A stretch of DNA of 58,911 nt from Candidatus Xenobia bacterium (GTDB lineage Bacteria > Vulcanimicrobiota > Xenobia > Xenobiales > QWHO01), in NCBI GenBank assembly GCA_045863235.1, contig BTUM01000005.1, positions 1 to 58,911 of the forward strand, read 5' to 3'. Below the pieces are notes generated by a model, which saw only the letters and a list, made by a program, of their open reading frames with translations, had not been told where the DNA came from and searched no databases. The position numbers and the translations under genes were made by a program. Positions 4,613 to 57,745 of this stretch are shown here, piece by piece. Every line of letters begins with the position of its first letter. The first letter of the stretch is position 1.

Positions 4613-5314
<702 letters not shown>

Positions 5315-40681: not shown

Positions 40682-41809
40682 TCAATGAGGCTGCGCAAGG
40701 TAACGCTCGGGCTCCTGCTCGAACTTACGCCGGCATTGGGCCGAGCAGAAGTAGTGCGTCTGGCCGCGATAGCCCCATCGATCGGATACCCGGGCAGCGG
40801 TCAGGCTCATTCCGCAGACCGGATCGACGAACTCCAAGCCGTCAGCAAGACTTGGCACGCTCGGGCTGCTCGTAACGTCCCACTGAAGTCGGGGCGCTAC
40901 AGTTGCCCAGACCAGGTCGGGCAGGACCTGCTGACAGAGCACCTGAATCCGCCGGCTCAGATCGATCGCCCCCTGCAGCGAACGTTCCGAGCTCCCCTGG
41001 CAGGCCTGGACATGCTCGACGACCAGCTTCTGGATGGCCTGGTCGAGCTCATCCGGACGCCAGAGCCAGGCTTCCAGCGCAGCCACGAAGAGCTGTGCTC
41101 GCAGGGCCGCGCCGACGGCTTGCAGGATCGTCTGCCGCCAGAGCCAGCTCCCGCGCTCGGGATAGACATGGCACCATACGTCGACCTCGCCGCGCAGCAG
41201 TCGGGCGCAGTCGCCCGGCTCCTGCCGCAGGAAGACCTGGCGCAGCTCGCGCTGGTGCTGCTCGAGAACCGGCTCGAGCTCCCCCGAGGTGCGCGAGCTC
41301 GCCAGGCTCTCGGGGACCGGCCAGCTCTCTCGGCAACGGATGCGCAGGCCTTCCAGACGTTGCCAGGCAAGGAGTCCGCATTCCCCATAGAGACGCTGTC
41401 CTACGGCGGCGTCGATTTGATCCTCGAGCGTCCCTGTCCCGGATGACCCGGGTTGCAGGTGGGCCAGAAGCATCGGTCCAAGGCGGTCGAGTTGCTCCGC
41501 GCCCAGACCCGTCTGAAGGCGGCGATGAGACTCCAGAATATCCTCGCGGAAGAGACGAACGGCCTCGTTGCGCTGAGCGCGCTGGCACTCAGCCTCCTCT
41601 GCCGTCACCCAGCCGCTTGCGGTTTCCACCTTCTGCGTCGCCTGGTGGACGAAGCTTTGAATCTCCTCGTAGGACTGTGCTAACCGGGCCATGGCGTCCG
41701 GTGCCGACGACCTGGCCGCCGGCTCCGAAGGGCTAAAACCCTGCAAGAGATGACGGAAGAAACCTCCAAACATCGTCAGGGCTTCTTCTTCATCATTTCG
41801 GCATTGCAA
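40682..41809 (-). CDS. YHS (TRASH-like) metal-binding domain protein with large N-terminal helical domain
   Basis: The C-terminus 'VDPVCGMSLT…YRGQTHYFCSAQCRRKFEQEPERY' is a YHS domain. The gene lies downstream of cusA on the same strand, and the start is uncertain. Confidence 0.55.
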   Translation of the reverse strand: MQCRNDEEEALTMFGGFFRHLLQGFSPSEPAARSSAPDAMARLAQSYEEIQSFVHQATQKVETASGWVTAEEAECQRAQRNEAVRLFREDILESHRRLQTGLGAEQLDRLGPMLLAHLQPGSSGTGTLEDQIDAAVGQRLYGECGLLAWQRLEGLRIRCRESWPVPESLASSRTSGELEPVLEQHQRELRQVFLRQEPGDCARLLRGEVDVWCHVYPERGSWLWRQTILQAVGAALRAQLFVAALEAWLWRPDELDQAIQKLVVEHVQACQGSSERSLQGAIDLSRRIQVLCQQVLPDLVWATVAPRLQWDVTSSPSVPSLADGLEFVDPVCGMSLTAARVSDRWGYRGQTHYFCSAQCRRKFEQEPERYLAQPH

Positions 41810-41981
41810 CCGTTGGCCGAGCAGGCCATGGGCGCCCCGCTCGGAGACGAGGAAGACCTGGCGTTATCGCCGGGTGAAGAGCTGGCTGGCGCCGGGGTTG
41901 GACTGCCCGACTCCCCCGAGCACCCGCCGGCCAGGAGTCCGGCCACCGCGGCCGCCATCAGCTTGTGGAAATCCCGTCGTT

Positions 41982-44900
41982 TCATGGTGTCTCCTCCTTT
42001 TTCATGACTCGTCTGACCCAGCGGGACAGATCGTCGATGTAAGTGTGCATGATGGGAATGTCAAAGAGCGAGAGGATTGTGCCTACCAGCAGACCGCCCA
42101 CCACGGCTGTGGCCAGGGGCTGGTAGGCGTCGAGGCCCGTGCGCGGCGCGAGGGCCACCGGCAGCATCACGATCAGCGAGATCCCGGCCGTCATCAGGAT
42201 CGGCCGCAAACGTTCGGGGCAGGCCCGCACGATCGCTTCGTCGCGTTCCATCCCCTGCTCGCGATAGCGCAGGATCTGGTCGATCAACAGCACAGCAGTG
42301 GTGATGTCCATTCCGGTCAACACGATAATGCCCAGGATGGACACTGTGGAGAACGCCTGTCCGGCCAGCCACAGGGCCGTGAAGACGCCGGCCAGCTCGA
42401 GCGGCAGCGAGGCGATCATCTGGAACGGCTGCAGAAACCCTCGGAACTGCACGACCAGCACGAGATACATCAAGACCAGGGCAAACACCAGACCCTGAAT
42501 GAGGCGACGAAAGCTCTCCATCATCTGGGTCATGTCGCCCCGCATCTCCATCCCGTAACCGGGCGGAAAGTTCAGCTCTCGGTAGGCGTTGGCCACCAGA
42601 TTCATCACGACGTCCATCGAGGGCAGGTTGCCGATCCGGTAGTAACCCGTGACCCCGATGACTCGACGCAGGCCATCATGCTCGATCACGCTGGGGCCGA
42701 CCGTTTGCTCGACGGTGACGACGGACTTCAGGGGCACGGTCCTGCCGTCCGAGGTGGTCAGGTAGACCCCCTCGAGGTCCTCGGCGTTGGCGCGTCGGTC
42801 CTGCTCATAGCGCAGCAGGATGGTGTTCTGGCGAATGTTGGGCAATCGATAGAACTGCTCGGTGAGTCCACCTCGCAGGGAGTAATAGGCTTGCTCGGCG
42901 ATCTCCGCGGGTGAGAGACCGAGCTCGCGCGCTCGTTGCCGATCGACGTGCAGACGCATTTCCGGCAGGCTGAGACTCCAGGTGGTGCCGGGTTGGAACA
43001 ACTCGGGCATCTTTTGCGCGATCCGCAGCGTCTCGGACCCCAGGCGGTCAAGCTCTCGAAGGTCGGGTCCGTAGATGTAGACGTGGATAGGCGCAGCGGC
43101 CGTAGCCATCACATCCGAGCCCATCTCCTTGATCTGAAGGCGACGAATCCCCGGTATCGTGGCCAGGGCCTCGCTTTGAATGGCGTCCATCACCTGCCAG
43201 ATCGTTCGGTCTCTCGAGTCTTTGTCCGAGAACGTCAGCATCATGCTCGCCCCGTTGACCTGGGGCATGGAATAGCCCGTAAAGAAAGGTGTCCAGCTCT
43301 CGAACATCGACTCCTGGCCGATCTCGATGCTGGCCTTCTCGAGCTCGGGATGCTTCAACATGATTTGCTCGAGCTGGTGGACGGCCTTCTCCGTAGCCGC
43401 AAACGAAGTACCCGGTTGCATCTCGAGAAAGCCGTTGGCCTGGCCGACGTCCGCCAGCGGCATCATCTCGCTGCCGATGAAGTAGTAGAACGTGATGCCG
43501 ACGATCAGCGTGGCCAGCACCCGGCAGAAGTTCACGAATCGATGCCGCAGCGTCCAGCGGATGGCCGAGGCATAGCCGCGCTCGAGTCGGTCGAGGCCTC
43601 GCTGGAAGGGATCGAGCACACGGTAGAGCCAGCGTCCCAGGGGATGCCGACGCTCTTTCTCCCGCACCTCCTCGGGCCGCAGCAGGTTGGCGCACAGGAG
43701 CGCCGTCAGCGTGAAGGAAACCAGCATCGAGGCCAGGAGGCCGAAGATCAGGGGCCAGACCAGCTCGACGAACATCAAGCCCACGATGCCCCCGGAGAAG
43801 AGCAGCGGCGACAGTGCCAGCACCATCATCAGGGTGGAAGCGACGACCACCAGGCGCACCTCCGCGATTCCCTCCATGGTCGCGGTCCTGGGGTCCTGGC
43901 CCAGGCGCAGGTGCCGCTCCACCGAATGGATGTCGATGATGCTGTCGTCTACCAGGCGTCCGATCGACAAAAGCAGCCCGATCAGGGTCCCGCTGTTGAA
44001 GGTCATGCCCAGGGGCAACATCATCAAAACGGCCAGCGCCAGGGAGGTGGGCACCGTCACCATGGCGATCAGCGTTCCGCGCCACTCACCCAGGAAGAAG
44101 AGAACGGCCAGGGCGGTCAGCACAACCGCCAACCCCAGCTCATGCCAGACGTTCGCGAACAGGATGTTGACGAAGCTGGCGTTGTCGTAGGCGACCTCGA
44201 ACTTGAGCCCGGGGTTCTGGCGCTCGAGCTCGCGAACCACCCGCATTACCTGCGGCACGACCTGGGCCGAGCTCGCGCCCGGGTTCTGGATGACCGAGAC
44301 CTCGATGGACGGGATGACCTCGCCCTGCGTACCGGGGAGGTGCTTGAGGTAGTGGTAGGCGCTGCGTCTCTCCCAATGGGTGTCCAGCACCTCGGCCACA
44401 TCCCGCACGTAGACCACTCGCTCGCCCTCGGCCTTGATCGGGATCGCGCGCACGTCCGCCGCGCTGAGCACCTGAGAGTCGACCCGCACGATCGCTTCGC
44501 GTCCCCCCGAGGTCAGCGTTCCGGCCGTCTCGGCCGTGTTGAAGCCGTCCAGCGCCTCGCGCAGGTCCAGGATGGAGACCCCGAAGCCGGCCAGCTTCTC
44601 GCGGTCCACGACCACCTGCAACTGGCGGCGGTAGCCGCCGAAGACGACCACCGAGTAGACGTCGGGCAGGCTTTTGATGCGAGCAATCCCGTGGTTGTCG
44701 GCGAACTCGCGCACCCGGTCGGGAGTCCAACCCCGGGCCGGGTCTCCGGTCAGGGCCAGCGACAGAATGGGTACGTTGAGGGGGTCCACGGGGATGACGA
44801 ACGAAGGCTTGAGGTTGGCTCCAGTTGCGGGCATATTGGCCGCGGCCACGTCGAGTAAGCTTTGCACCTCGACGCGCGCTTTGCGCATGTCGTGTCCGTA

Positions 44901-45197
44901 GGGAAACTCCAGGGTAACGATCGAGAACCCGTCCTGGGAGGAGGAGCGAATGAAGCGCAATCCGGGAACGTGCACGAGCTGCTCTTCCAGTGGCTTGGAA
45001 ACATACGTTTCCATCTCCTGAGCCGAAAGGCCCGGCATGGTGGTCACCACGCCCAGCATCGGACTTTCCACGTAAGGCGCGAATCGGCGGGGGATGCGCT
45101 CGCTGATTGCCACCCCGGCGAGCCATAGGAGGGCGACGTAGATGGCCACCACGGCATAGGGATGGTCGATGGACCAGCGAGGCAGAGCTCGCATCAT
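41982..45197 (-). CDS. cusA: Heavy-metal efflux RND transporter (CusA/CzcA family)
   Basis: The 1071-aa RND pump has an HME-type N-terminus (IDHPYAVVAIYVALLWLAG…). Its start overlaps the membrane fusion protein gene's stop (ATGA). Confidence 0.85.
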   Translation of the reverse strand: MMRALPRWSIDHPYAVVAIYVALLWLAGVAISERIPRRFAPYVESPMLGVVTTMPGLSAQEMETYVSKPLEEQLVHVPGLRFIRSSSQDGFSIVTLEFPYGHDMRKARVEVQSLLDVAAANMPATGANLKPSFVIPVDPLNVPILSLALTGDPARGWTPDRVREFADNHGIARIKSLPDVYSVVVFGGYRRQLQVVVDREKLAGFGVSILDLREALDGFNTAETAGTLTSGGREAIVRVDSQVLSAADVRAIPIKAEGERVVYVRDVAEVLDTHWERRSAYHYLKHLPGTQGEVIPSIEVSVIQNPGASSAQVVPQVMRVVRELERQNPGLKFEVAYDNASFVNILFANVWHELGLAVVLTALAVLFFLGEWRGTLIAMVTVPTSLALAVLMMLPLGMTFNSGTLIGLLLSIGRLVDDSIIDIHSVERHLRLGQDPRTATMEGIAEVRLVVVASTLMMVLALSPLLFSGGIVGLMFVELVWPLIFGLLASMLVSFTLTALLCANLLRPEEVREKERRHPLGRWLYRVLDPFQRGLDRLERGYASAIRWTLRHRFVNFCRVLATLIVGITFYYFIGSEMMPLADVGQANGFLEMQPGTSFAATEKAVHQLEQIMLKHPELEKASIEIGQESMFESWTPFFTGYSMPQVNGASMMLTFSDKDSRDRTIWQVMDAIQSEALATIPGIRRLQIKEMGSDVMATAAAPIHVYIYGPDLRELDRLGSETLRIAQKMPELFQPGTTWSLSLPEMRLHVDRQRARELGLSPAEIAEQAYYSLRGGLTEQFYRLPNIRQNTILLRYEQDRRANAEDLEGVYLTTSDGRTVPLKSVVTVEQTVGPSVIEHDGLRRVIGVTGYYRIGNLPSMDVVMNLVANAYRELNFPPGYGMEMRGDMTQMMESFRRLIQGLVFALVLMYLVLVVQFRGFLQPFQMIASLPLELAGVFTALWLAGQAFSTVSILGIIVLTGMDITTAVLLIDQILRYREQGMERDEAIVRACPERLRPILMTAGISLIVMLPVALAPRTGLDAYQPLATAVVGGLLVGTILSLFDIPIMHTYIDDLSRWVRRVMKKEETP

Positions 45198-47374
45198 CGG
45201 ACCACGACCGTTCCCCGCAGCATGTCCATCCCGCACTGAAATTTCAATGTGTGGCCGGGGTGCGCGGGCAACTCGACCGTCACGGGCTCGTTGAGAGGCA
45301 GCTCTTTTCGCAGTTCGAGCTCGGGGAAGATCACTTCCGTGCCACAGGTCGACTCTGTCGTGCGCAGAAAGGTGACCTTCACGCTGTCTCCTGCGGGCAG
45401 AGTCAGGCTGGCCGGCTCGAAGCCCTTCTCGGTGACGCGGATCGTTGCGGTCTCCACGGCCGCTGGCGTCGATACCGCCACGGGGTCGTTCTCTCGCAGG
45501 CCTGTCGAGCTCGAAGTGATCACGAGCTCGCCCTCCTCCAGGCCGGACCGCACCCCGGTGGTCTCACCGTTGCTGACCCCGAGCTGGATCGCAACCCGGT
45601 GGGCTACGTGGCCATTTCCTTCCGGTCGGGCGACCCAGACCCAGCGGTCCTCCCCGTGCTCCGAGATGGCCGATGTCGGCACGAAGAGGGCGTCCTCGCG
45701 CGCTGCCGTAACGATTTCGAGCCGGACCAGGTTTCCCGGCAAGAAGCGATGATCGCGGTTGGGGATCACCGCTTCCACGACCCCCTGCCGCGTCGCGGGG
45801 TTGACGGCCGGGCTGACCGAGGTCACCCGGGCCGCCACTCTGCGACCACGCGTGTCCACGAACCGGACCGGGTCCCCTTTCGATACCCGGCTCAGGTCGG
45901 CTTCGCTCACGTTGGCCTGCAGGCGGATGGGATCGATCTGGGCCACATCCACAATTGCGGTCCCCGGCTGTACGAGCACGCCGGGGCTGATGCGGCGGGC
46001 GCTCACCACCCCGTCCAGGGCGCTGCGCACCTCGGAGTAGCCCAGGCGCGCTTGCGAGCTGCGCAAGCGGGCCTGGGCTCCGGACAGGGAAGCGGAGGCC
46101 TGGCTCACCTGGCGCCGGCGCATTTCCAGCGTCGCTTCGACCGACTTCACGTGGGCATGGTGCGCCTCGACCTGGGACCGGGCTGCCTGCATTTCGGCTC
46201 GGGCTGCCTCGACCTCGGACAGGGCCTGGCTCAGCTTCTGCTCCGCTGCCTCTGTCCCGGCCTGGTCGCGCTGCAGGTCTTCCTGAGACAGGCCGCCGGT
46301 CTGCGCGAGCGCGCCCGAGCGGACGAGCTCGCTGCGCTTGAAGACCGCTTCGGCCCGGGCCGCCTCGACCTGCGCCCTGGCCTGGTCGACCCGGGCGCGC
46401 GCGGTCTTGACCGCAGCCTCCTTTTCGGACCGCTCAGCCTCGGCCAGCTCCACCTCGGCCCGCGCCTGGTCCTCCTCGGCCCGGGCCACGTTCACCGCCT
46501 CGAGCGCCTCGCGGGCGGCAGCCTCGCTCTCGAGCCGCTCGGGCTCGAGCAAGGAGACATCCAGTCTCGCCACGACCTCGCCTTTGGATACCTGGTCACC
46601 GACGTAGAAGGGCATCCACTCGATGATCCCCTCGGTGCGAGGATACAGCGGTTGCTCCTGATAGGCAACCGCCTGGCCGGCGTAGCTCACGCTGGCTTCC
46701 ACTCGTCCGCGCCGGACCGGGACCGTCTCGACGGCGAGAGTGCCGGGTGGGGCCGGCATGCTCATCTCCATCACCTGGGCCTCGATCGGCGTCATGGCAC
46801 CGGGCCTCCGAAAGTGCCGCACGACATAGATCGCGCCGGCGGCCATCACGGCCAGGAGCAGGAGGCCACCGAGCACCTGGCGGTTGGCCACGGTTCGCCA
46901 GGATGGCAGATGGCCGGCTCGATGGAGCGCGAAACCGGCCCCGAGCAGAGCCGCGAGCCCGACCATGCCCAGAATCACGGGCCAGGGTGAACCGCTTTCG
47001 GCGGCCGTGCTCTGGCCCGTGGCCAGGTCGAACGTGACGGTTCCCTCGCCGGCCTCTCCCTGGATGGTCACCTTGACCCGGTATGCTCCGGCCATCGAGA
47101 AGCCTGCTCCCACGCGGTACACGCCGGGCTCGCCGGTCGGGCGCCCCGTCTGCTCGCGTTCCCCCATGTCCATCGTGGGCATCCTGGCCAGAGCCTTGAC
47201 CGTGGCACCATCAACCGGCTTTCCTGTCTTGTCAAGCACGCGGACCACCAGCTCTGCGGGCCCGACCGGGACCACCTCCGGGTCGACGCGGAGCTCCACG
47301 CGGTATGGCCCCGCCGTACCGGTCAGACCGAAGGCAACCGCAGCCAGCCAGAGCCAGATCAGAAAGCGTCCCAT
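45194..47374 (-). CDS. RND efflux membrane fusion protein with N-terminal FixH/YtkA-like periplasmic domain and C-terminal CusF-like metal-binding domain (SilB-like architecture)
   Basis: It has a signal/TM segment, a Met-rich beta domain, an HlyD-like coiled-coil and barrel core, and a C-terminus '…AHPGHTLKFQCGMDMLRGTVVV' (a His plus M-x-M site). A GGGAGG RBS precedes ATG 47374. Confidence 0.75.
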   Translation of the reverse strand: MGRFLIWLWLAAVAFGLTGTAGPYRVELRVDPEVVPVGPAELVVRVLDKTGKPVDGATVKALARMPTMDMGEREQTGRPTGEPGVYRVGAGFSMAGAYRVKVTIQGEAGEGTVTFDLATGQSTAAESGSPWPVILGMVGLAALLGAGFALHRAGHLPSWRTVANRQVLGGLLLLAVMAAGAIYVVRHFRRPGAMTPIEAQVMEMSMPAPPGTLAVETVPVRRGRVEASVSYAGQAVAYQEQPLYPRTEGIIEWMPFYVGDQVSKGEVVARLDVSLLEPERLESEAAAREALEAVNVARAEEDQARAEVELAEAERSEKEAAVKTARARVDQARAQVEAARAEAVFKRSELVRSGALAQTGGLSQEDLQRDQAGTEAAEQKLSQALSEVEAARAEMQAARSQVEAHHAHVKSVEATLEMRRRQVSQASASLSGAQARLRSSQARLGYSEVRSALDGVVSARRISPGVLVQPGTAIVDVAQIDPIRLQANVSEADLSRVSKGDPVRFVDTRGRRVAARVTSVSPAVNPATRQGVVEAVIPNRDHRFLPGNLVRLEIVTAAREDALFVPTSAISEHGEDRWVWVARPEGNGHVAHRVAIQLGVSNGETTGVRSGLEEGELVITSSSTGLRENDPVAVSTPAAVETATIRVTEKGFEPASLTLPAGDSVKVTFLRTTESTCGTEVIFPELELRKELPLNEPVTVELPAHPGHTLKFQCGMDMLRGTVVVR

Positions 47375-47375
47375 G

Positions 47376-48692
47376 TCAGTACCTCCCGGTCGCAAACAGA
47401 AAGTCGGATTCGGCCAGGCCCCGGCGGTAGGCCGCTTGAATCCGGTTGGTGCGCGCTCGGCGAAGCGTGGCAAGCGCGTCCAGCACCTCGAGGTGGATCC
47501 CACGCCCCAACTCGAAGCGCATGCGGGCGATGCGAAGCTCCTCCTCGGCCGCGGTCACTTCCGTTCCGGCCAGCTTCTCATTTTCGAGGGCCGCCTTCCA
47601 GCGCGCTCTCTCACGTTCCACCTCGGCGGCCACGTCGTATTCCAGCTGGCGCGCTTCGAGCAGCCGGGCCTGGCGCATGGCCTCTGCCTCCTCGCGTCTG
47701 GCGCCTCGCTCGCCCCCGTCATAGAGCGACCAGGAGAGCACTAAACCCACCTGATATCCGCCGTCGAAAGGGGTGGGCCCGGCCAGCTCCGGCTGCCTGG
47801 CCTCGGCCATGGCGTAGAGGGCCAGTTGCGGGGCGTACTCGGACAGCACCTCAGCCACACGCCGATCCGCCGCCTCGGCCGCATAGCGGGCCACAGCCAG
47901 GTCGGCTCGCTCGGCCAGCGCCGCGCTGACGATGTCCTCGAGCTCTCCTTCGGGTAGGGGTTCGGGAACGGGAGCCGTCAGAGTGAAACTGGACCCGGGA
48001 TCGACGCCCATGGCGTTCTTCAGGTTGATCATGGCTGTCTCCGTCCCAGCGTTGCTATCGTTGACTTTCTGCCGCGCCGAGGCCACCTCGGCCTCTACCC
48101 GGAGCACGACATACCGAGCCACCCGTCCGACGGACTGGCGCTCGCGGACGATGCGGAGCAGCTCCTCTTGCTGGGCCAGCTCCCAGGCTGCGGCGTCCAG
48201 CTCGGAGCGAGCCTGGAGCAATTCGAAGAACGCCTTGCGGACGTCACGCGCCTTCTCGCGCATGGTGAGAGCCAGACGTGCCAGCGCGGTGCGCTCTCCC
48301 GCTTTCGCCTGCGCCAACCGGGCTTGCAGACGTCCACCGGTGTAAAGCGGCAGCATGAGGCTGAGATTGGTGCTCAGCCCCCCGCCGGGCAGGTTGGTCC
48401 AAAAACCAGGCTCGACGCCGGGCGCGCCACTGACGATCATGTCAGTATCACCGGCGTTGAGATACACACCCAGGCCGAGCTTTGGGCGGAAGGCAGCCTC
48501 CGCTTCGGAGGTACGGGCTCTGGCAGCCCGCATCTCCGCCTGGCTGACGGCTACCGCAAGGTGGTGCGCCAGGGAGTACTGGACAGCTTGTTCGAGGGTC
48601 AGCTCACCCTCAAGCTTCGGCCGTTCAGGTTGGCCGAAGGCCGGGAGGACGAGGAGCAGCCCCAATACCCCCAGGAGAGCGCGTTGCAGCAT
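47376..48692 (-). CDS. TolC-family outer-membrane efflux protein (CusC-like)
   Basis: It has a signal peptide (MLQRALLGVLGLLLVLPAFGQ) and TolC-like tandem repeats. Confidence 0.8.
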   Translation of the reverse strand: MLQRALLGVLGLLLVLPAFGQPERPKLEGELTLEQAVQYSLAHHLAVAVSQAEMRAARARTSEAEAAFRPKLGLGVYLNAGDTDMIVSGAPGVEPGFWTNLPGGGLSTNLSLMLPLYTGGRLQARLAQAKAGERTALARLALTMREKARDVRKAFFELLQARSELDAAAWELAQQEELLRIVRERQSVGRVARYVVLRVEAEVASARQKVNDSNAGTETAMINLKNAMGVDPGSSFTLTAPVPEPLPEGELEDIVSAALAERADLAVARYAAEAADRRVAEVLSEYAPQLALYAMAEARQPELAGPTPFDGGYQVGLVLSWSLYDGGERGARREEAEAMRQARLLEARQLEYDVAAEVERERARWKAALENEKLAGTEVTAAEEELRIARMRFELGRGIHLEVLDALATLRRARTNRIQAAYRRGLAESDFLFATGRY

Positions 48693-48734
48693 ACGCTGAG
48701 CCTCCTGATGGGAATGTCCCGCTTGAGGAGAAGC

Positions 48735-49070
48735 TCAGACCGGAGGGGGCAAAGAGAGACGGAGAGGACTCAACCAGCTTCCGGGGGAGTGAAGGCTCAA
48801 CTCGACCAACCCGGTGACCGCAATCGCGACGGATGCCCTCGGGCAGACTAGCGGAACGGGTCGCGCGATGGTCTCGAAGGAGGCGGCGGGGGTAGCCAGT
48901 GCCAGGCCGCTGACCGGTGCCGGCGTGACGGGACCGGCGCAGCATGTGCTTGTGACCGGAGCGCTACAGCAGCAGTCGGAGGTTCCACAGCACTGCCCGT
49001 CCTTCGCCCAGGCTGTGCCGGGCAAGAGGAGCAAGAGCAACAAACTGAGCGCCAGGTTCCTCACGGTCAA
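48735..49070 (-). CDS. Small secreted cysteine-rich protein (candidate periplasmic metal-binding protein), first gene of the cus-like operon
   Basis: It has a classic signal peptide (MTVRNLALSLLLLLLLPGTAWA) and a Cys cluster (CCGTSDCCCSAPVTSTCC). An AGGAAA RBS is present. Confidence 0.5.
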   Translation of the reverse strand: MTVRNLALSLLLLLLLPGTAWAKDGQCCGTSDCCCSAPVTSTCCAGPVTPAPVSGLALATPAASFETIARPVPLVCPRASVAIAVTGLVELSLHSPGSWLSPLRLSLPPPV

Positions 49071-49089
49071 GGTTTTCCTGACCTGCTCT

Positions 49090-49147
49090 GGAGAATCCTT
49101 CCGCCTCTTTCCGGGAGGGGTGTTGATGCCCGCACAGAGGATTCTCC
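49090..49147. promoter_or_regulatory. Perfect 10-bp inverted repeat GGAGAATCCT…(38 nt)…AGGATTCTCC in the divergent intergenic region between the two metal-efflux operons
   Basis: The arms are at 49090-49099 and 49138-49147. The repeat spans most of the ~100-bp divergent promoter region. Confidence 0.45.
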
Positions 49148-49171
49148 AAATCTCTCGTCCAAGGTTGGCAT

Positions 49172-49492
49172 GTGCGTCAGTCCGGCCGATCTGCGATCGT
49201 CCTTCTGCTCGGGTTGGGCCTCTGGCTCGCCTCGTGGGGCCACGATCTGTTCGAAGATCACCATCACGAGCACGCTCCCGAGAGACTGACCTTCACGCGG
49301 GTCAGCGACGCGACCACCGAAGCTCTGGCCACCTGTTGCCAGGTCACGATTCCCGTCGCTCTCATCGCCCTGGCTCTCAGCCCCGAGCCCCTTTCCGCGC
49401 TGATCGCGCGGGCTCGCCGCGACGATGGTCCGCCGGCCCGGTCGCTTCTTCCTCCAGGCCTTTGTTGGCGTGGTCCTCCTCCTCCAGCATAA
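49172..49492 (+). CDS. Possible small His-rich membrane protein (HDLFEDHHHEH), leader of the czc-like operon
   Basis: The start is GTG with a weak RBS. It has two hydrophobic segments and its His-rich motif resembles the N-terminus of the downstream membrane fusion protein. It overlaps a long antisense artefact ORF. Confidence 0.3.
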   Translation: MRQSGRSAIVLLLGLGLWLASWGHDLFEDHHHEHAPERLTFTRVSDATTEALATCCQVTIPVALIALALSPEPLSALIARARRDDGPPARSLLPPGLCWRGPPPPA

Positions 49493-49530
49493 GCAAACCG
49501 CCCTGATTTTGCTTTTGTCGAGGGTCGCTT

Positions 49531-50808
49531 ATGTTTCGCCGATTGTGTTGCTCGGCGGGGCTGATCGTGCTTGCTCTCACCCCGCTCTGGGCCGAACCGG
49601 CCCTGACCATGGAGCGGGTCGTGAGCCAGGCTCTCAGCTCCGGCCCGAGAGCTTCCGCTCTGGCTTTGAGAACCGACGTCGCCCGCGGGCGGCTGGTGCA
49701 GGCCGGAGCCTTCCCCAACCCCCGCGTGGGTGCCGAGCTGCAGACCACCGGTCTGAACGGCCTTCAGTGGTATGGCCTGACCGCGGCTCAGGAGCTCGAG
49801 CTGGGCGGCAAGCGGGCCGCGCGTGTGCGGGCTGCCGAAGCCGAGCTGGAGCTGGCCGATTGGCAGGTGGCCGACGCTCGCCGCGGCCTGGTGCTCGAGG
49901 TCAAGTCGCGCTTCGTGACCTGGCTCTTTGCCAGTGAGCTGGAGAAGCTGCGCCGCGAGTCTGTTGAGCTTTCCGACCGCCAGCTGGAGCTTGCCCGCAA
50001 GCGCCTGGAGCTGGGAGACGTGGCCGGAGTCGATGTCACCTGGCTCGGCGCCGAGCGCGAGCGCCGTCAGGCTGCTCTGGAGCTGGCCTCCGGCGCGGTC
50101 CTGGCCGCCAGAGAGAGCTTGTCTGCTCTGACCGGCCAGCTCGGCCAGGCCGGCCCACCGGCCGGGACGCTGGGCCGGGAGGGTCCTCGGGAGGCCCTGG
50201 AGGAGCTCATCGCCCGCGCGCTGGCTGAGCGGCCCGATCTTCTGGCGGCCGCCGCCCAGACCCGCTCGCGGGTGTGCCAGGTGGAGGTGGAGCGCAGTCG
50301 GGCCGTCTCCAACCTCACTTTGACCGGCGGCCTGGCCTATCAGGACAACAGCCTGGGGGCCGAAGCCTTCCTGCCCCGAGGCGTGGTCCAGGGCCTGGAG
50401 GACCGTACCTGGGTGATCTCGGCCGGGTTCGAGATCCCCCTGCCGCTCAACGATACCAACCAGGGCAATATCGAGCAGTCCGAGACGCTGGTGCGCCAGG
50501 CCGAGCTGGAGGAAGAGGCCCTGCGTCTGGAGGTGCGCGCTCAGGTGGCCGAGAGCTATCAGCGCTGGCAATCGGCTCGCAGGGCGCGCCTGCGGTTGAC
50601 CGAGGAAGCCCTGCCCCGGGCCAGGGAGAGCCTGGAGATCATCGAGCGGGCCTACCAGCTGGGCAACCGTTCGGTGCTCGACCTGTTGCTGGCTCAGGAA
50701 ACCTACCTGAGCCTGCGATTGAGCCAGCTCGAGATGGCTCGCGATGAGGAGCAGAGCCTGGTGGCGCTGGAGAGCGCCCTGGGCCGGCACCTGGAGGATA
50801 CCCCGTGA
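49531..50808 (+). CDS. TolC-family outer-membrane efflux protein (CzcC-like)
   Basis: It has a signal peptide, TolC-like repeats, and the correct position in the operon. Confidence 0.8.
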   Translation: MFRRLCCSAGLIVLALTPLWAEPALTMERVVSQALSSGPRASALALRTDVARGRLVQAGAFPNPRVGAELQTTGLNGLQWYGLTAAQELELGGKRAARVRAAEAELELADWQVADARRGLVLEVKSRFVTWLFASELEKLRRESVELSDRQLELARKRLELGDVAGVDVTWLGAERERRQAALELASGAVLAARESLSALTGQLGQAGPPAGTLGREGPREALEELIARALAERPDLLAAAAQTRSRVCQVEVERSRAVSNLTLTGGLAYQDNSLGAEAFLPRGVVQGLEDRTWVISAGFEIPLPLNDTNQGNIEQSETLVRQAELEEEALRLEVRAQVAESYQRWQSARRARLRLTEEALPRARESLEIIERAYQLGNRSVLDLLLAQETYLSLRLSQLEMARDEEQSLVALESALGRHLEDTP

Positions 50809-52619
50809 GAAATTTGCTCATTATCTTGCTGCTCCTTTTAAGCCTGCCCGCTCCGGGCCATGAAGGCCACGAGCACGAGGACTTGCGCGAGACGAAGACC
50901 GACGAAGACCCGGAACGGGTGCTGAGCGAGCAGCGCGAGCTCAAGTGGCAGGGCCGCTCCTTGCGCCTGACCCTGCGGGCCTACCCGAAGGGGGCGCGGG
51001 CCGGCGAGCCCGTGGAGCTGACGATCCGGCTGGAAGAGCGGATCGATCCCCCCGACCCTCTTCTGGGAGAGGCCGCCCCCGTGGCCGACCTGCCCTTCGA
51101 GCTCACGGTGCAGGGACCGTCTGGCTCGCAGCTCGAGCTCCAGAATCAAGACCTGGCCCTGGGCGAGGGCAGGTGGCTCTTCACGACCGCCCGGCCGGGG
51201 AGCTACCAGCTCCTGGTGCAAGCAGCCGGCCCTCCGCCGCTCGAGGCGGCCTTCGCCTGGTCGACCCCCGCTCCGCTGGCCAGGCGCGTGGCCCTCTGGG
51301 CCAGCGGCGCGGTGCTGGCGCTCTGGGCCCTGGTGAGCCTGCTCTTTCTGCGGCGCTGGACCGCTCGCGATCAGGCCGCCGGCTGGGTGGTGGCCACTCT
51401 GGCAGCCGGCGGTCTCTTTTACTGGGGAAGCTTTCCCCCGGCGCTGGCCCTGGCCCCGACCGGCCCGGCCGCCGCCGAGCCCGGAACCGAACGCTCGGTG
51501 GTGGTCCCGGTCGAGCTGCAGCGCTCGCTGGGATTTACCACCGGGGAAGCCCGGCTCGAGCAGGTGAGCCTGGCCCTGGAGGTGCCCGGTCAGACCCTGG
51601 CTCCGGCCGGCAGCGAGCAGAAGATCCAGTCCCCGGTCCTGGGAACCGTCATGGGAGAGGCAATCCCCCAGGTGGGCGACCGGGTCCACCCGGGCCAGGT
51701 GCTGGCCGAGGTGCAGGAGCTGCACCTGACCGCCGAGGAGACCCAGCTCAAAGGGCACGAGCTCGAGGTGGCTGCCCGGCGCTATGAGCTGGAGGTGGGA
51801 CGAGTCGAGCTCGAGCGCCAGCGCCTCCAGCTTGAGGGCGAGCTGGCCGCCGGGAGCACCCGCCTGGCCCAGATGCGCTCGCAGCTCAAGCGCTCGGAGG
51901 AGCTTTACGCCATCTCCGCCATCCCGCTCAAGGAGCTGGAGGCCGCCCGCTTTCAGGCCCGCGCCGCCGAGCAAGAGCAGGCCGGCCTGAAGAAAGCGCT
52001 CGAGCGATTGTCTCGTCCTCCCGGCCTGCCCGAGCTTCCGGCGGCCGAGCACGAGCACCGTTTTGCTCTGCGCAGCTCGCTGGACGGAGTGGTGTCCCAG
52101 CGAGAGCACGCCCGGGGCGAGGTGGTCGAGGCCGGGGCCTTGCTCTTCACCATCGTTGACCTGAGCACGATCTGGGTGGAGGCCCGGGTGAGCGAGAGTG
52201 AGCTCCCGGCCGTGCGCCGGGCGGGACGGGCTGAGATCGTCAGCCCGGGCGCCGAGCGCAAGTACGCCGGGCGGCTGGTCAGCGTCCGGCCCCGGATCGA
52301 TCCTCGCTCGCGCACGGCCGGAGTCCTCTTCGAGGTGGACAATCGCCGACTCGAGCTGCTCGAGGGGATGTCGGCCCGGGTGCGCCTGCTGGGCGGGCGG
52401 CGCGAGGTGGTGACCGTGCCGGCTGATGCCGTGCTGGGCTCGGGCGACAAGAGCGTCTTCGTGCAGGTAACAGCTGAGGAGTTCGAGGCCCGCACGGTCG
52501 AGGTGGACCGCGTGCAGTCGGGTCGCGCCTGGATACGCACGGGCCTCGAGCCGGGCCAGAAAGTCCTGGTTCGGGGAGCCGGTCAGCTCGCTTCCGAGCT
52601 CGCAAAGCGGGCCCGCTGA
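50805..52619 (+). CDS. RND efflux membrane fusion protein (CzcB/CusB-like) with His-rich N-terminus and FixH-like extra domain
   Basis: 'HEGHEHEDLRE' follows the signal peptide, and a TM segment is followed by an HlyD-family core. Confidence 0.8.
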   Translation: MRNLLIILLLLLSLPAPGHEGHEHEDLRETKTDEDPERVLSEQRELKWQGRSLRLTLRAYPKGARAGEPVELTIRLEERIDPPDPLLGEAAPVADLPFELTVQGPSGSQLELQNQDLALGEGRWLFTTARPGSYQLLVQAAGPPPLEAAFAWSTPAPLARRVALWASGAVLALWALVSLLFLRRWTARDQAAGWVVATLAAGGLFYWGSFPPALALAPTGPAAAEPGTERSVVVPVELQRSLGFTTGEARLEQVSLALEVPGQTLAPAGSEQKIQSPVLGTVMGEAIPQVGDRVHPGQVLAEVQELHLTAEETQLKGHELEVAARRYELEVGRVELERQRLQLEGELAAGSTRLAQMRSQLKRSEELYAISAIPLKELEAARFQARAAEQEQAGLKKALERLSRPPGLPELPAAEHEHRFALRSSLDGVVSQREHARGEVVEAGALLFTIVDLSTIWVEARVSESELPAVRRAGRAEIVSPGAERKYAGRLVSVRPRIDPRSRTAGVLFEVDNRRLELLEGMSARVRLLGGRREVVTVPADAVLGSGDKSVFVQVTAEEFEARTVEVDRVQSGRAWIRTGLEPGQKVLVRGAGQLASELAKRAR

Positions 52620-55600
52620 TGCTCGACCGCCTGATTCTCTGGTCGATCCGCAACCGGCTGGTGGTGGTCGTGCTGGCCGTGCTGCTGACGGTCTGTGGAG
52701 GCACGCAAGCGGTGCAGATGCCGGTGGACGTCTTCCCCGACCTGAACCGGCCCACCGTCAGCATCCTCACCGAGTCGCACGGCCTGGCCCCGGAAGAGGT
52801 CGAGACGCTCATCAACCTGCCCCTGGAGTCGGCTCTGAACGGGGCGACCGGGGTGGAGCGGGTGCGCTCGGTGGCCGGGATCGGCCTGAGCATTCTCTGG
52901 GTCGAGTTCGACTGGAATACGGACATCTTCGTGGCCCGCCAGATCGTCAACGAGAAGGTTTCGGCCGTGCGCGGGCGTCTCCCGCGCGGCTCAGAGCCCG
53001 TGCTGGCGCCCATCTCCTCGATCATGGGTGAGATCATGCTGGTGGGGCTGACCAGTCGCACCGGGGCGACCTCTCCCATGGAGCTGCGCAGCCTGGCGGA
53101 CTGGCGATTGCGCCCGCGCCTCATGGCCGTTCCGGGTGTCTCTCAGGTGATCGTGATCGGGGGCGAGGTGCGCCAGTATCAGGTGCTGCTCGACCCCGAG
53201 AGGATGCTCCACAACCAGGTGAGCGTGGCTCAGGTGGAGCAAGCTCTCTCGCAGGGCAACCAGAACACGTCCGGGGGCTTTCTCGACCGTCAGGGGCAGG
53301 AGGCGCTGGTGCGCAACCTGGGCCGCATCGCCAACCTGCCCGACCTGGCCCGGCTGGTGGTGGACTACCGCCCCGAGGGACCGGTGCGGCTCGATCAGGT
53401 CGGCTCGGTTCGCTTCGGGCCCCAGATTCGGCGCGGGGCGGCCTCGGTCTCGGCCCGCCCGGGAGTGATCCTCAGCGTGCAGAAGCAGCCGGGCGCCAAC
53501 ACGCTCGAGCTCACCGGGCGCCTTCAGAAGATGCTCGAGGAGGCCGGCCGGGAGTCGCTGCCGGCCGACGTGGCCCTCACGCCGCTTTTCGAGCAGAGCC
53601 ACTTCATTCGCGCGGCCGTGACCAACGTTGAGGAGGCCCTGCGGGATGGGGCCCTGATGGTCGTGCTGGTGCTGCTCGCCTTTCTCCTCAACCTGCGCAC
53701 CACCCTCATCACCCTGACCGCCATCCCGCTCTCGCTGGTGGTGGCCACCTTGACCATGCAGCACCTGGGGCTGACCATCAACACCATGACGCTGGGGGGG
53801 CTGTGCGTGGCCGTGGGCGAGCTGGTGGACGATGCCATCGTGGACGTGGAGAACGTCTTTCGACGCCTGTCCGAGAACCGTCGCAAACCCCAACCAGAGA
53901 ACGCGGAGCGAGTGGTTTTCCGGGCCTCCAGCGAGGTGCGCAACTCGATCGTTTACTCCACGCTCCTGATCGTGCTCGTCTTCTTGCCCCTGTTCTTCCT
54001 GGGAGGGATCGAGGGTCGACTCTTCCAGCCACTGGGCATCGCTTACGTGGTGGCTCTGGTAGCATCTCTTTTGGTCTCGGTAACGCTCACTCCGGCCCTG
54101 TGCACCTATCTGCTGGCCAATGCTCCCTGGCTGGGCCAGAAAGCTGAAAGCCCGCTGGCAGCCTGGCTGAAGAGGCTCCAGGAGCGGGTGCTGCGCCGCA
54201 CGTTGCGCCATCCGGTGCTGGTGCTGGGGCTGTGCTTGCTGGCTTTCCTGCTGGCCCTGGCCAGCCTGGCCACCCGGGGCCGCGAGTTCCTGCCGCCCTT
54301 CAACGAAGGGACCTTGACCGTCAGCCTGATCACCGAGCCGGGCACCAGCCTGGATGAGTCCGACCGCATCGGACGGGCGGCCGAACGGGTGCTGCTGGCC
54401 ATCCCCGAGGTGCGGGCCACCGGCCGACGCACCGGTCGAGCCGAGCTCGACGAGCATGCCGAGGGGGTGCATTACTCCGAGCTGGATGTCGACCTGCGGG
54501 CCGGTCGATCGCGCGATCAAATCCTGGCCGACGTGCGCAAGGGCTTCGGCCCGTTCCCCGGGGTGGAGGTCAACCTGGGCCAGCCCATCTCGCACCGCCT
54601 GGATCACATCCTGTCGGGCATCCGGTCTCAGGTTGCGGTCAAGGTGTTCGGCCCGGACCTGGCCACCCTGCGCAAGCTGGGTGACGAGGTGCGCTCGACC
54701 ATGGCCGGGGTCAGCGGCGTGGTGGATCTTGCGGTGGAGAAGCAGGTTCTGATTCCCCAGCTGCGCATCCAGGTCGACCCGGTCCGCGCCGGCGAGTACG
54801 GCCTGACTCCCGGCGAGCTCAGCTCCACCCTCGAGATCGCCCTGGGCGGCGAGCCCCTGGGCCAGGTGGTGGAGGGCCAGCAGGTATACGACCTGGTCTT
54901 GCGTCTCGACGAGCCTTTCCGAGACCGGCCCGAGTCGATCCGCCGCTTGCTGATCGACTCGCCCGCCGGCCTGGTTCCCCTGGGAGCGGTGGCCAACGTG
55001 GAGGAGGAGCAGGGCCCCAACCAGATCATGCGAGAGAACATGCTGCGCCGCATCGTGGTGCAGTGCAACGTGGCCGGGCGCGATCTGGGCAGCACGGTGG
55101 ACGAGATCCGCCGCCGCCTCGAGCGGCTCGAGCTTCCGCCCGGCTACCACTATACCCTGGAGGGACAGTTCCAGAGCCAGCAGTCGGCCTCGGCCACGCT
55201 GCTGGGCTTCTCGCTGGTCTCGCTGGTCGCCATCTACGTGCTGCTGTATCAGCACTTTCGCATGCACAGGCTGGTTTTGATGGTGCTGGCGGCAGTACCG
55301 CTGGCCATCACCGGGGGGGCTCTGGCCCTCACGCTGACGGGCCAGAACCTGTCGGTGGCCTCGCTGGTCGGCTTCATCACCCTGTGCGGCATCTCGTCGC
55401 GCAACGAGATCATGCGGTTGTCCCACTACCTGCACCTGATGGAGAAAGAGGGCATGCCTTTCGGCCTGGAGCTGGTGTTGCGCGGCAGCCGCGAGCGCCT
55501 GATCCCGGTCATGATGACCGCCCTCTCGGCCGGTCTTGCCCTCATTCCCCTGGCCGCCTCCGCCGGCGCCCCCGGCAAGGAGATCTTGCAGCCGGTGGCG

Positions 55601-55729
55601 GTGGTCATCCTGGGAGGGCTGCTCGTCTCCACCCTGCTCGAGACGGTCGTCACCCCCATCTTGTTCTGGACGTTTGGAGCCCTGGTTGCCGGTCGCAACC
55701 CTCATCACGACAAAGGAGAGTCCTCATGA
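52619..55729 (+). CDS. czcA: Heavy-metal efflux RND transporter (CzcA/CusA family)
   Basis: The 1036-aa RND pump begins with the HME-type N-terminus MLDRLILWSIRNRLVVVVLAVLL. Confidence 0.85.
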   Translation: MLDRLILWSIRNRLVVVVLAVLLTVCGGTQAVQMPVDVFPDLNRPTVSILTESHGLAPEEVETLINLPLESALNGATGVERVRSVAGIGLSILWVEFDWNTDIFVARQIVNEKVSAVRGRLPRGSEPVLAPISSIMGEIMLVGLTSRTGATSPMELRSLADWRLRPRLMAVPGVSQVIVIGGEVRQYQVLLDPERMLHNQVSVAQVEQALSQGNQNTSGGFLDRQGQEALVRNLGRIANLPDLARLVVDYRPEGPVRLDQVGSVRFGPQIRRGAASVSARPGVILSVQKQPGANTLELTGRLQKMLEEAGRESLPADVALTPLFEQSHFIRAAVTNVEEALRDGALMVVLVLLAFLLNLRTTLITLTAIPLSLVVATLTMQHLGLTINTMTLGGLCVAVGELVDDAIVDVENVFRRLSENRRKPQPENAERVVFRASSEVRNSIVYSTLLIVLVFLPLFFLGGIEGRLFQPLGIAYVVALVASLLVSVTLTPALCTYLLANAPWLGQKAESPLAAWLKRLQERVLRRTLRHPVLVLGLCLLAFLLALASLATRGREFLPPFNEGTLTVSLITEPGTSLDESDRIGRAAERVLLAIPEVRATGRRTGRAELDEHAEGVHYSELDVDLRAGRSRDQILADVRKGFGPFPGVEVNLGQPISHRLDHILSGIRSQVAVKVFGPDLATLRKLGDEVRSTMAGVSGVVDLAVEKQVLIPQLRIQVDPVRAGEYGLTPGELSSTLEIALGGEPLGQVVEGQQVYDLVLRLDEPFRDRPESIRRLLIDSPAGLVPLGAVANVEEEQGPNQIMRENMLRRIVVQCNVAGRDLGSTVDEIRRRLERLELPPGYHYTLEGQFQSQQSASATLLGFSLVSLVAIYVLLYQHFRMHRLVLMVLAAVPLAITGGALALTLTGQNLSVASLVGFITLCGISSRNEIMRLSHYLHLMEKEGMPFGLELVLRGSRERLIPVMMTALSAGLALIPLAASAGAPGKEILQPVAVVILGGLLVSTLLETVVTPILFWTFGALVAGRNPHHDKGESS

Positions 55730-56277
55730 AACCCACAACCCTGGTGACCCTGATCTTCAGCCTGCTGGTGGGAGCCGCCCTGGCCGGCGATCCCGCCCAG
55801 CCCACCCTGGAGCAGATGAAGAAGCTCTATCCGGCCGCGGCCAGCTTCGTCAAGAAGCCCCTCGACCTTTCTGGCCACACCCGCGAGCACATCGAGGAAG
55901 CGCTCGGCTTCAAGCTCGACGGTCACGACCTCAAGACCCCCGCTTACGTCGTGCGAGGGGCCGACGGTCGCTCGCTGGGAGCCGTCTGGCCCACCGACGT
56001 GCACCTTCCCGAGGGCAAGTATGCCGACGTGCTGGTTGGGGTCGATACCAAAGGCGCGGTGGTGGGAGTGCTGGTCTGGGGAGGCCCGGTGCCGGCCATC
56101 CAGGAGGGTGCCTATCTCGAGCAGTACAAAGGCAAGAACGCGGACTCTCCCATTCGGGTCGGCAAGGACATCAAGCCCGCTGCCGGTCAGAAGGGGCCCT
56201 CGGCCGATCTGGCCGACAGCGTGCGCCGGGCAGTGCTGGTGCTCAGCCACGGTCTGCTGAAGGCGCACCAGCACTGA
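55726..56277 (+). CDS. FMN-binding-domain lipoprotein
   Basis: The ATGA start overlaps the czcA stop and an AAAGGAGAG RBS is present. 'ADVLVGVDTKGAVVGVLVWGG…EQYKGK' resembles the FMN_bind domain of NosR, RnfG and NqrC. Confidence 0.55.
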   Translation: MKPTTLVTLIFSLLVGAALAGDPAQPTLEQMKKLYPAAASFVKKPLDLSGHTREHIEEALGFKLDGHDLKTPAYVVRGADGRSLGAVWPTDVHLPEGKYADVLVGVDTKGAVVGVLVWGGPVPAIQEGAYLEQYKGKNADSPIRVGKDIKPAAGQKGPSADLADSVRRAVLVLSHGLLKAHQH

Positions 56278-56867: not shown

Positions 56868-56942
56868 GAATCGTTGTGGATTGGTCTACCATGCGGAGCG
56901 GCTCCATCAACCTGGGAATATCGGCCGTGGTATACTGGGGTG

Positions 56943-57734: not shown

Positions 57735-57745
57735 TCTGACGCGCG

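Follow-up and report, generated by a model that had tools for sequence, protein, structure and literature searches.

The 58,911-nt stretch analysed here (contig BTUM01000005.1, GenBank assembly GCA_045863235.1; hereafter the window) belongs, according to exact protein matches, to Candidatus Xenobia isolate AMXMBFR33, a metagenome-assembled genome (MAG) placed by the NCBI taxonomy in the phylum Vulcanimicrobiota. It contains two divergent tripartite metal efflux operons of the resistance-nodulation-division (RND) type, each headed by a small open reading frame (ORF) for a secreted, ligand-rich protein, a gene order already proposed in a preliminary description of this DNA and borne out on both strands. 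The two small ORFs, one with a cysteine cluster (Cys-type, minus strand) and one with a histidine cluster (His-type, plus strand), look like new, sequence-divergent and unannotated members of the functional class described for the copper sensor CutF. On balance we think that each of them senses metal in cis for the operon it heads and does not function as a stable periplasmic protein.

CutF of Rhodobacter capsulatus is a 118-aa protein with a Sec signal peptide, a C41xxxC45 motif and the tail P109EPEGPPPRL118 (PMC9973294; bioRxiv 10.1101/2025.02.05.636593); the distance from C45 to P114 is 69 residues and the protein ends in GPPPRL-stop (bioRxiv 10.1101/2025.02.05.636593). It is a co-translationally exported copper sensor: bound copper lengthens stalling at the PPP motif, and the ribosome that stalls there melts a stem-loop masking the next gene's Shine–Dalgarno (SD) sequence (PMC9973294; bioRxiv 10.1101/2025.02.05.636593), while CutF itself is degraded upon export (PMC9973294). 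CutF-like proteins have been defined as proteins shorter than 150 aa that carry a signal peptide, have PP among their last 15 residues and are followed at a distance of less than 1000 nt by a gene of their own strand; the resulting set of 5,334 proteins, dominated by Pseudomonadota and Bacteroidota, contains Cys, His or mixed motifs, and its commonest downstream neighbour is an RND OEP gene (PMC9973294). CruR, CopL, CzcI, SilD and CusD belong to this class (PMC9973294; PMC9426467).

Both leaders of the window fit this description. The Cys-type ORF encodes 109 aa from its GTG codon and the His-type ORF 106 aa, both carry a Sec signal peptide of the signal peptidase I type as judged by inspection, and both end on a proline run (LSLPPPV-stop and WRGPPPPA-stop) that is kept in all relatives. 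Each has a ligand motif, CC-x4-CCC-x8-CC in the first and HDLFEDHHHEH in the second, the latter with one H-to-Q change in its other allele, and the gene for the outer-membrane factor (OEP) follows after 42 nt and 38 nt, respectively. Arrest at the motifs RAPP and RGPP is strong and not relieved by elongation factor P (EF-P), and both are over-represented close to the C-terminal ends of small secreted proteins encoded before metal genes (PMC12992588). RGPP is present close to the C-terminus of the His-type leader, while the Cys-type leader (LSLPPP) lacks this feature. The two OEP genes carry the consecutive locus tags 10210 and 10220 in the deposited genome, so both small ORFs are unannotated there.

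The Cys-type leader (48735..49064, minus strand, from the GTG at 49064; the mechanically called ORF starts at the TTG at 49070) consists of a signal peptide ending AWA/KD, the CC-x4-CCC-x8-CC cluster, a 64-residue spacer and the tail SWLSPLRLSLPPPV immediately before the stop codon. By inspection, the signal peptide is composed of an R, the hydrophobic stretch LALSLLLLLLL and PGTAWA/KD. The ORF is kept in the related loci L001-L003 and L005-L013. Three database homologues with 72-83% identity and the uncalled copies in L005-L013 are all followed by the OEP and adaptor genes. The cysteine cluster is invariant in at least nine relatives, and the C-terminus SWL(S/T)PLRLSLPPP(V/A/AA)-stop is nearly so, the conserved tail being SWLSPLRLSLPPP. 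Pairwise ratios of non-synonymous to synonymous substitution rates (dN/dS) are 0.19-0.33 in frame versus 0.84-2.2 in the other two frames, and all three indels are 3 nt long. The Cys-type ORF is thus a real gene under purifying selection, and the dN/dS values together with the in-frame indels rule out an artefact of high GC content. A profile search against 1.84 billion representative sequences yielded no homologues of the ORF beyond its own cluster, and it has no match in Pfam or NCBIfam.

Conservation is very unevenly distributed along this protein. When the window is set against L008/L010, identity reaches 62-64% in residues 1-42 and 87% in residues 95-109 but drops to 4-13% in residues 43-94, a stretch in which L008 and L010 share just 23% with each other. 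Nevertheless, the total length is constant at 109-110 aa, with 64-65 residues between the last CC and PPP. A spacer of fixed length and unconserved sequence would look like the pattern expected of a ruler between two functional ends. An AlphaFold2 (AF2) model based on a shallow alignment contains the signal-peptide helix (residues 3-15) alone, with a mean pLDDT of 47.6, and the mature part is predicted to be disordered.

The overall plan of the His-type leader (49172..49492, plus strand) is the same: a signal peptide (R..R, then AIVLLLGLGLWLA, then SWG/HD, by inspection), the HDLFEDHHHEH cluster, a TCC motif and the tail WRGPPPPA before the stop codon, with about 68 residues between the His cluster and the tail. 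This leader is known from two alleles, the second of which (91% amino acid identity) is found in L004 and L091-L096; the ORFs of these loci are identical save for a conservative V10I in L004 and have their upstream sequence in common. One might ask whether the His-type ORF is a chance open frame in high-GC intergenic DNA and the Cys-type leader alone is real. Its GC content at third codon positions is 0.68 compared to about 0.85 in the neighbouring genes, further frames are open in the same region, and the ORF, besides being unannotated in the source genome, has only those two alleles to speak for it. However, 16 of the 24 nucleotide differences between the alleles are at third codon positions, and 11 of the resulting codon changes are synonymous and 10 non-synonymous. 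The second allele, whose tail reads WRGPPPSA, stays in frame and preserves the signal peptide, RGPPP and the His cluster. The layout, the distance between the motifs and the intergenic hairpin agree with those of the Cys-type leader, a sub-threshold match of the second allele to DUF2946 reaches the C-terminal end of that profile, and the ORF was predicted as a gene in L092. The artefact reading is therefore weakened, on thinner evidence than for the Cys-type ORF, and we consider a chance frame quite improbable.

Leaders of this design are not restricted to the window. A genome scan retrieved 80 loci, nearly all labelled Armatimonadota, and 73 related operons were scored by a scripted search for leader ORFs with a hydrophobic N-terminus, at least three Cys/His residues and PP in the last 15 residues. 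In 44 of the 73 operons such an ORF precedes the adaptor gene by 0.1-3.6 kb, in most cases lying directly before OEP, and 34 of the 44 end on an R[AG]PP tail. The opposite strand of the same regions, used as a control, gave two matches, one of them with an R[AG]PP tail.

Some of these RAPP-type loci are peculiar in other respects. In L025, L028, L033, L034, L054, L060, L063, L064 and L081 the gene after the leader seems to begin with ATC or ATT, placed 7-9 nt past a GAGG sequestered in the stop-codon stem-loop and about 60-90 nt past the leader stop codon. A near-cognate start of this kind would make the post-leader gene dependent on the upstream ribosome. At several of these loci the frame that begins at ATC codes for a further small Cys peptide (...KKxGSCGSPNCAC). 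Although most of the family is in Armatimonadota, close relatives of the operon also occur in MAGs with widely differing taxonomic labels (Burkholderiales for L011, L013 and L019, a Methanoregulaceae archaeon for L037 and Eremiobacteraeota for L012), which suggests either mis-binning or horizontal transfer of the cassette.

In both window operons a stem-loop is predicted by RNAalifold and RNAfold at the junction between the leader and the OEP gene. The Cys-type hairpin (48697..48737, minus strand), an RNAalifold consensus over seven relatives, would pair the leader stop codon, along with the bases just after it (UGAGCU..UCCU), with AGGAGGCUCA, i.e. the OEP SD sequence AGGAGG (48701-48706) plus CUCA. 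In the His-type hairpin (49486..49535, plus strand) the stop codon region AGCAUAAGC is predicted to pair with GCUUAUGUU, which includes the OEP start codon, and an inner stem covers the SD sequence GAGGG (49520-49524). Individual folds of the RAPP-type relatives similarly lock the last leader codons and the stop codon with the GAGG of the next gene, in stem-loops of -27.5 to -43.5 kcal/mol; a MAFFT alignment, in which the outer stem alone was recovered, revealed a compensatory change in two of its six pairs. A scan of the whole window with Rfam gave no match to known RNA families.

From this arrangement we infer, by analogy with CutF, metal dependence, stalling and a stem-loop switch at the leader stop codon and OEP SD sequence for the two window leaders. 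The nascent leader would be targeted to SecYEG via its signal peptide, so that the ligand cluster (CC-x4-CCC-x8-CC or HDLFEDHHHEH) could emerge on the periplasmic side while the ribosome decodes the C-terminal proline run, LSLPPP-V-stop in the Cys-type and WRGPPPP-A-stop in the His-type leader. Metal bound to the exported part would slow the release of the proline-stalled ribosome. A ribosome paused in the stop codon region would in turn melt the stem-loop that pairs this region with the SD sequence or start codon of OEP, and translation of the efflux genes would then increase. The preliminary description had remarked that no regulator gene is adjacent; indeed, a Pfam scan of the main ORFs of the whole window found no MerR, ArsR, two-component or other metal-responsive regulator, a lack that agrees with control by a leader peptide.

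A number of observations weigh against this interpretation. The stem-loops of the window are without covariation and their z-scores are unremarkable (-0.4 to -1.9; -1.2 for the His-type). The His-type leader has only two alleles, and the differences between them hit the His cluster itself (H31Q) as well as C98G and P105S. Neither window ORF matches DUF2946 (PF11162, gathering threshold 23.7 bits), the sequence family to which CutF, CruR and CopL belong, at E<=10, the match of the second His-type allele (P0004) is below threshold (E=0.01, 17 bits), and ten RAPP-type leaders from Armatimonadota have no match to this family either. Homology among the Cys-type, His-type and RAPP-type leaders, considered as a possibility, was rejected since neither BLASTP nor hhalign gave a significant result. 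In the Cys-type tail the Arg of RAPP/RGPP is missing, and EF-P normally relieves stalling at a bare PPP. Finally, the CutF mechanism has been demonstrated for a multicopper-oxidase operon and not for an RND operon, and His-only clusters in the published survey were linked to HupE/UreJ rather than OEP genes (PMC9973294).

An alternative for the function of the leaders is the one put forward in the preliminary description, which suggested that the Cys-rich protein could be a novel periplasmic buffer with no obvious characterised relatives. According to this explanation the small proteins would be stable periplasmic metal buffers or chaperones like CusF, SilE or CzcE that hand metal over to the pump, and the signal peptide combined with dense Cys or His clusters, the co-transcription of the leaders with the efflux genes and the strong conservation of the Cys motif are all what one would expect of them. 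The rest of the protein does not fit easily. Its mature part is predicted to be disordered, half of it is a spacer conserved in length but free in sequence, with an unconserved middle, and its most conserved C-terminal feature is a proline run one or two residues before the stop codon, for which a chaperone would have no need. Moreover, CutF undergoes degradation when exported (PMC9973294), neither ORF shows similarity to CusF, CopC or comparable families, and both fit the CutF-like class. A buffer is thus unlikely in our view, and sensing by the nascent leader is the explanation that we favour.

The likeness to CutF concerns the design more than the sequence. [quoted passage not shown] In contrast to the CxxxC/CXXC of CutF, the ligand motif is the seven-cysteine CC-x4-CCC-x8-CC or a run of His, the Cys-type tail SWLSPLRLSLPPP resembles neither EPEGPPPRL nor RAPP, and sequence similarity to the class is not significant. 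The host is Candidatus Xenobia, while the surveyed CutF-like proteins are mostly from Pseudomonadota and Bacteroidota. With respect to the RAPP/RGPP arrest peptides ApdA, ApdP and CruR (PMC7897499, PMC10951233, PMC12992588), the His-type end W-R-G-P-P-P-P-A-stop is alike, while the Cys-type LSLPPP has no Arg and the downstream genes encode efflux components instead of Sec/YidC factors. An exported nascent chain with a C-terminal arrest sequence and a stalled ribosome that opens a hairpin at the ribosome binding site, as proposed here, are also the ingredients of SecM-secA, MifM-yidC2 and VemP-secDF. These systems sense translocation capacity, whereas the presumed signal for the window leaders is metal on the exported ligand cluster.

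The divergent region between the two leader ORFs is 107 nt long (49065-49171) and contains an inverted repeat that the preliminary description had put at 10 bp and proposed as a candidate operator shared by both operons. The repeat exists and is one base longer than claimed, with perfect 11-nt arms TGGAGAATCCT (49089..49099, left arm, minus strand) and AGGATTCTCCA (49138..49148, right arm, plus strand) separated by 38 nt. Perfect inverted repeats with 11-nt arms and a loop of at most 60 nt occur at three places in the window (four overlapping 11-mer hits), and since simulation with a first-order Markov model yields about 2.5 hits of this kind by chance, the repeat alone is not statistically remarkable. 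It is comparison with relatives that gives it meaning. The left arm reads AGGATTCTCCA on the minus strand and ends 24 nt upstream of the Cys-type GTG, the end of its AGGATTC core being 28 nt upstream; for the right arm and the His-type GTG the corresponding distances are 23 nt and 27 nt. The core AGGA(A/T)TC is invariant in ten aligned leaders that have no other upstream sequence in common, and it ends 25-28 nt upstream of the start codon. L008, L010 and L013 keep this position as well, although the DNA around the motif cannot be aligned there. The arms mark the conserved 5' edges of the two operon modules, one arm per module, and the right arm is conserved in the CPR1-type relatives L004 and L091-L096 behind a different upstream gene.

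Comparison with the relatives also indicates how the two operons came to lie side by side. The loci L005/L011 (GCA_964471395.1) are about 95% identical to window positions 44383-49104 and 56893-58911, but in place of 49105-56892 they have a 1.1-kb Uma2 gene (L005 7175-8267); in this BLAST comparison the entire plus-strand operon falls within the 7.8-kb segment 49105..56892. In L004 and L091-L096 the plus-strand operon lies behind an unrelated 1018-aa gene, and homology to the window begins at 49133. GCA_013328875.1 has both operons on separate contigs, L007 and L091, the latter beside an IS91-family transposase. Judging from these breakpoints, the operons are adjacent only in this genome, via a strain-specific insertion or replacement of 7.8 kb, and for this reason the two arms must be seen as coming from different modules. 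Two further details of these junctions may be mentioned: the plus-strand operon of L091 is 3.8 kb from the IS91-family transposase gene (L091 1022-2080), and the 12-nt string TGATGCCCGCAC (window 49123-49134) is common to the unique segment of L005 near the junction.

What, then, do the repeat and its AGGAWTC core represent? If the repeat were a single palindromic operator or a DNA or RNA hairpin, one regulator could control both operons, and perfect 11-nt arms inside a divergent intergenic region as short as this one, with an exact 10-mer that has no further copy in the window, would be in line with such a function. Yet the centres of the arms are 49 bp apart, homology to the relatives breaks inside the putative loop (at about 49104-49109 and at 49133), each arm is kept with its own operon in genomes that lack the other operon or have it in another place, chance alone would produce repeats this long at the rate given above, and no conserved RNA structure is found in the leaders, RNAalifold predicting no pairs in the 5' leaders around the motif. 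The arms belong to separate modules and travel each with its own operon, which leaves a shared operator very unlikely indeed. The motif could instead be an independent cis element, one per operon, serving as the site of a common trans-acting factor or as a lineage-specific promoter element immediately before a short leader with an SD sequence, and through it the operons would be co-regulated. For this speak the invariance of the core in ten leaders with differing flanks, the breakpoints in the window, in L005 and in the L001-type loci, which all lie within about 10 nt upstream of the motif, and a TATAAT-like box 5-12 nt before the leader start in other Armatimonadota loci, suggesting that the ORFs head their transcripts. 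Against it, there is no match to a sigma-70-type promoter; in L001, L003 and L006 the motif would be inside the 5' untranslated region, given a MerR-type promoter-like site some 60 nt farther upstream; the intergenic region of L008 and L010 measures just about 50 nt; and the motif occurs at chance frequency outside leaders, with no candidate factor known. Independent elements are consequently a possibility that we take seriously without expecting it to prove correct.

Several other readings of this region were considered. A role of AGGAWTC as a general signal before other genes was rejected because of its chance frequency outside the leaders across 0.97 Mb of loci. An extracytoplasmic function (ECF)-type -35/-10 arrangement was discarded as well: the putative -10 is unconserved in the window, and the SD sequence lies between the motif and the start codon. 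Sigma-70 promoters or terminators were not found in the intergenic region. The MerR-type promoter-like site consists of TTGACT, a 20-nt spacer with the dyad CTGGACnnnnGTCCAG, and TAGACT (L001 ~300-335, L003 ~248-283, L006 ~4850-4885) and is located between a DUF305 gene and the Cys-type leader, upstream of the latter; a dyad like that of L001, L003 and L006 is absent from the window. In L006 and L008 a MerR-family gene follows the operon at a distance of about 5 kb; it, too, is missing from the window.

The Cys-type ORF might even found a new arrest-leader family so far undetected by databases, characterized by a polycysteine sensor, a 64-65-residue 'ruler' and a non-RAPP W-x10-PPP tail, and forming together with AGGAWTC a portable control module. 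We put this forward tentatively, as a possibility with the odds clearly against it. The spacer and the upstream motif are in any case the parts most worth following up, the leader design itself having already been described.

The minus-strand genes downstream of the leader are tightly packed in the order OEP, adaptor, RND permease, 69-aa lipoprotein and YHS protein. OEP, a TolC-like outer-membrane factor of 438 aa (47376..48692; Pfam OEP E=6e-49), is followed by the adaptor or membrane fusion protein (726 aa, 45194..47374), in which a signal peptide, a YtkA domain (E=4.6e-15; 56.5 bits, cutoff 25.9), two transmembrane (TM) helices, the adaptor core (HlyD_D23, E=5e-17) and a C-terminal Cupredoxin_1 domain succeed each other. 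The C-terminal domain had been described as CusF-like, of the SilB type; residues 681-768 are instead a match to Cupredoxin_1 (PF13473, E=5e-14), and no CusF family was detected. This combination of YtkA, adaptor and Cupredoxin_1 is common, a homology search with the minus-strand adaptor having found it in more than 80 clusters. The RND permease (1071 aa, 41982..45197; ACR_tran E=3e-196) had been labelled CusA, a name that it cannot keep: it scores 328.3 bits with TIGR00914 against a cutoff of 701.45, its best relative in the PDB is MdtB, and CusA is not among its top 60 PDB relatives. By sequence this pump is not of the CusA/CzcA type, and a link to copper would come from context only, namely YtkA, the cupredoxin and YHS domains, and the DUF305 and MerR genes of relatives.

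The start of the 69-aa lipoprotein gene (41776..41985), which the preliminary description had overlooked, overlaps the RND stop codon (ATGA), and in L006 and L008 an ORF of 77-79 aa occupies its position. The product carries a twin-arginine translocation (TAT) signal, an LAGGC lipobox and a C-terminal MACSANGCNAEMM motif, and would be the second tiny ligand-bearing protein of the operon. The 363-aa protein with a C-terminal YHS domain (40682..41773; Pfam YHS E=7.8e-12), correctly recognized before, is encoded by the last conserved gene of the minus-strand operon and is syntenic in L006 and L008.

On the plus strand the leader is followed by OEP (425 aa, 49531..50808; Pfam OEP E=1.5e-47), the adaptor (604 aa, 50805..52619), the RND permease (1036 aa, 52619..55729), a 183-aa protein and a 196-aa protein. 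The adaptor comprises a HEGHEHED motif, a beta-sandwich of about 115 residues, two TM helices and a CzcB-like core and has no extra C-terminal domain. A YtkA/FixH-like N-terminal domain (PF13115/PF05751) had been claimed for both adaptors, which is borne out for the minus-strand protein (YtkA); in the plus-strand one neither YtkA nor FixH gave a sequence match, and the hhalign alignment covers the adaptor core alone. A single-sequence AF2 model of the plus-strand N-terminal region is a generic Ig-like beta sandwich (pLDDT 70), with PmoD as best structural match (E=7e-4). The permease passes TIGR00914 (765.1 bits versus the curated cutoff of 701.45), as expected for a heavy-metal efflux (HME) RND protein of the CusA/CzcA family, and its top PDB relatives are ZneA and CusA. 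The plus-strand operon thus resembles CusCFBA/CzcCBA in having OEP, a CzcB-like adaptor and an RND protein recognized by the family model (CusA PDB 3K07; ZneA PDB 4K0E). The two window systems differ from CusCFBA/CzcCBA in that there is no CusF gene, each adaptor carries two TM helices and, at its N-terminus, a periplasmic beta domain, and the minus-strand RND protein is nearest to MdtB-type pumps and fails the CusA/CzcA model.

The 183-aa secreted protein (55726..56277) is without an assigned family. Its designation as an FMN-binding lipoprotein found no support, for there is no FMN_bind match (best Pfam E=0.15) and the signal peptide, AALAG/DP, is without a lipobox cysteine. Its gene overlaps the RND stop codon with its start and is kept 3' of RND in L091 and L092. 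The gene for the 196-aa protein (56277..56867), which has one N-terminal hydrophobic segment, overlaps the stop codon of the 183-aa gene in the same manner (TGATG). A 12-nt perfect inverted repeat, CAGTGCTGGTGC / GCACCAGCACTG at 56231-56242 / 56266-56277, ends exactly on the stop codon of the 183-aa gene, and the corresponding hairpin, overlapping the next start codon, could play a role in translational coupling. Elsewhere in the window the Pfam scan identified an ABC amino-acid transporter, a kinase-GAF-GGDEF protein, a YebC-family protein, glycosidases, HepT and a chromate transporter. The 1651-aa protein at 5529-10484 (plus strand) combines Ser/Thr kinase, AAA ATPase, GAF and GGDEF domains and bears no relation to the leaders.

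Leader ORFs of this kind are systematically overlooked by gene callers, being unannotated in the source genome, in L005-L010 and in most CPR1-type contigs, and the metal-regulatory capacity of such genomes is therefore under-reported. The spacer of fixed length and free sequence offers a simple and testable prediction of a 'molecular ruler'. Should the leader and AGGAWTC indeed form a portable module, RND operons could change their genomic context and yet answer to periplasmic metal without a dedicated transcription factor. If the leaders act like CutF, the missing regulator gene nearby would be explained, a mechanism demonstrated for a single multicopper-oxidase operon would extend to tripartite RND pumps, and metal efflux in the little-studied Candidatus Xenobia, as well as in the related operons of Armatimonadota, would be switched at the level of translation by a nascent leader.

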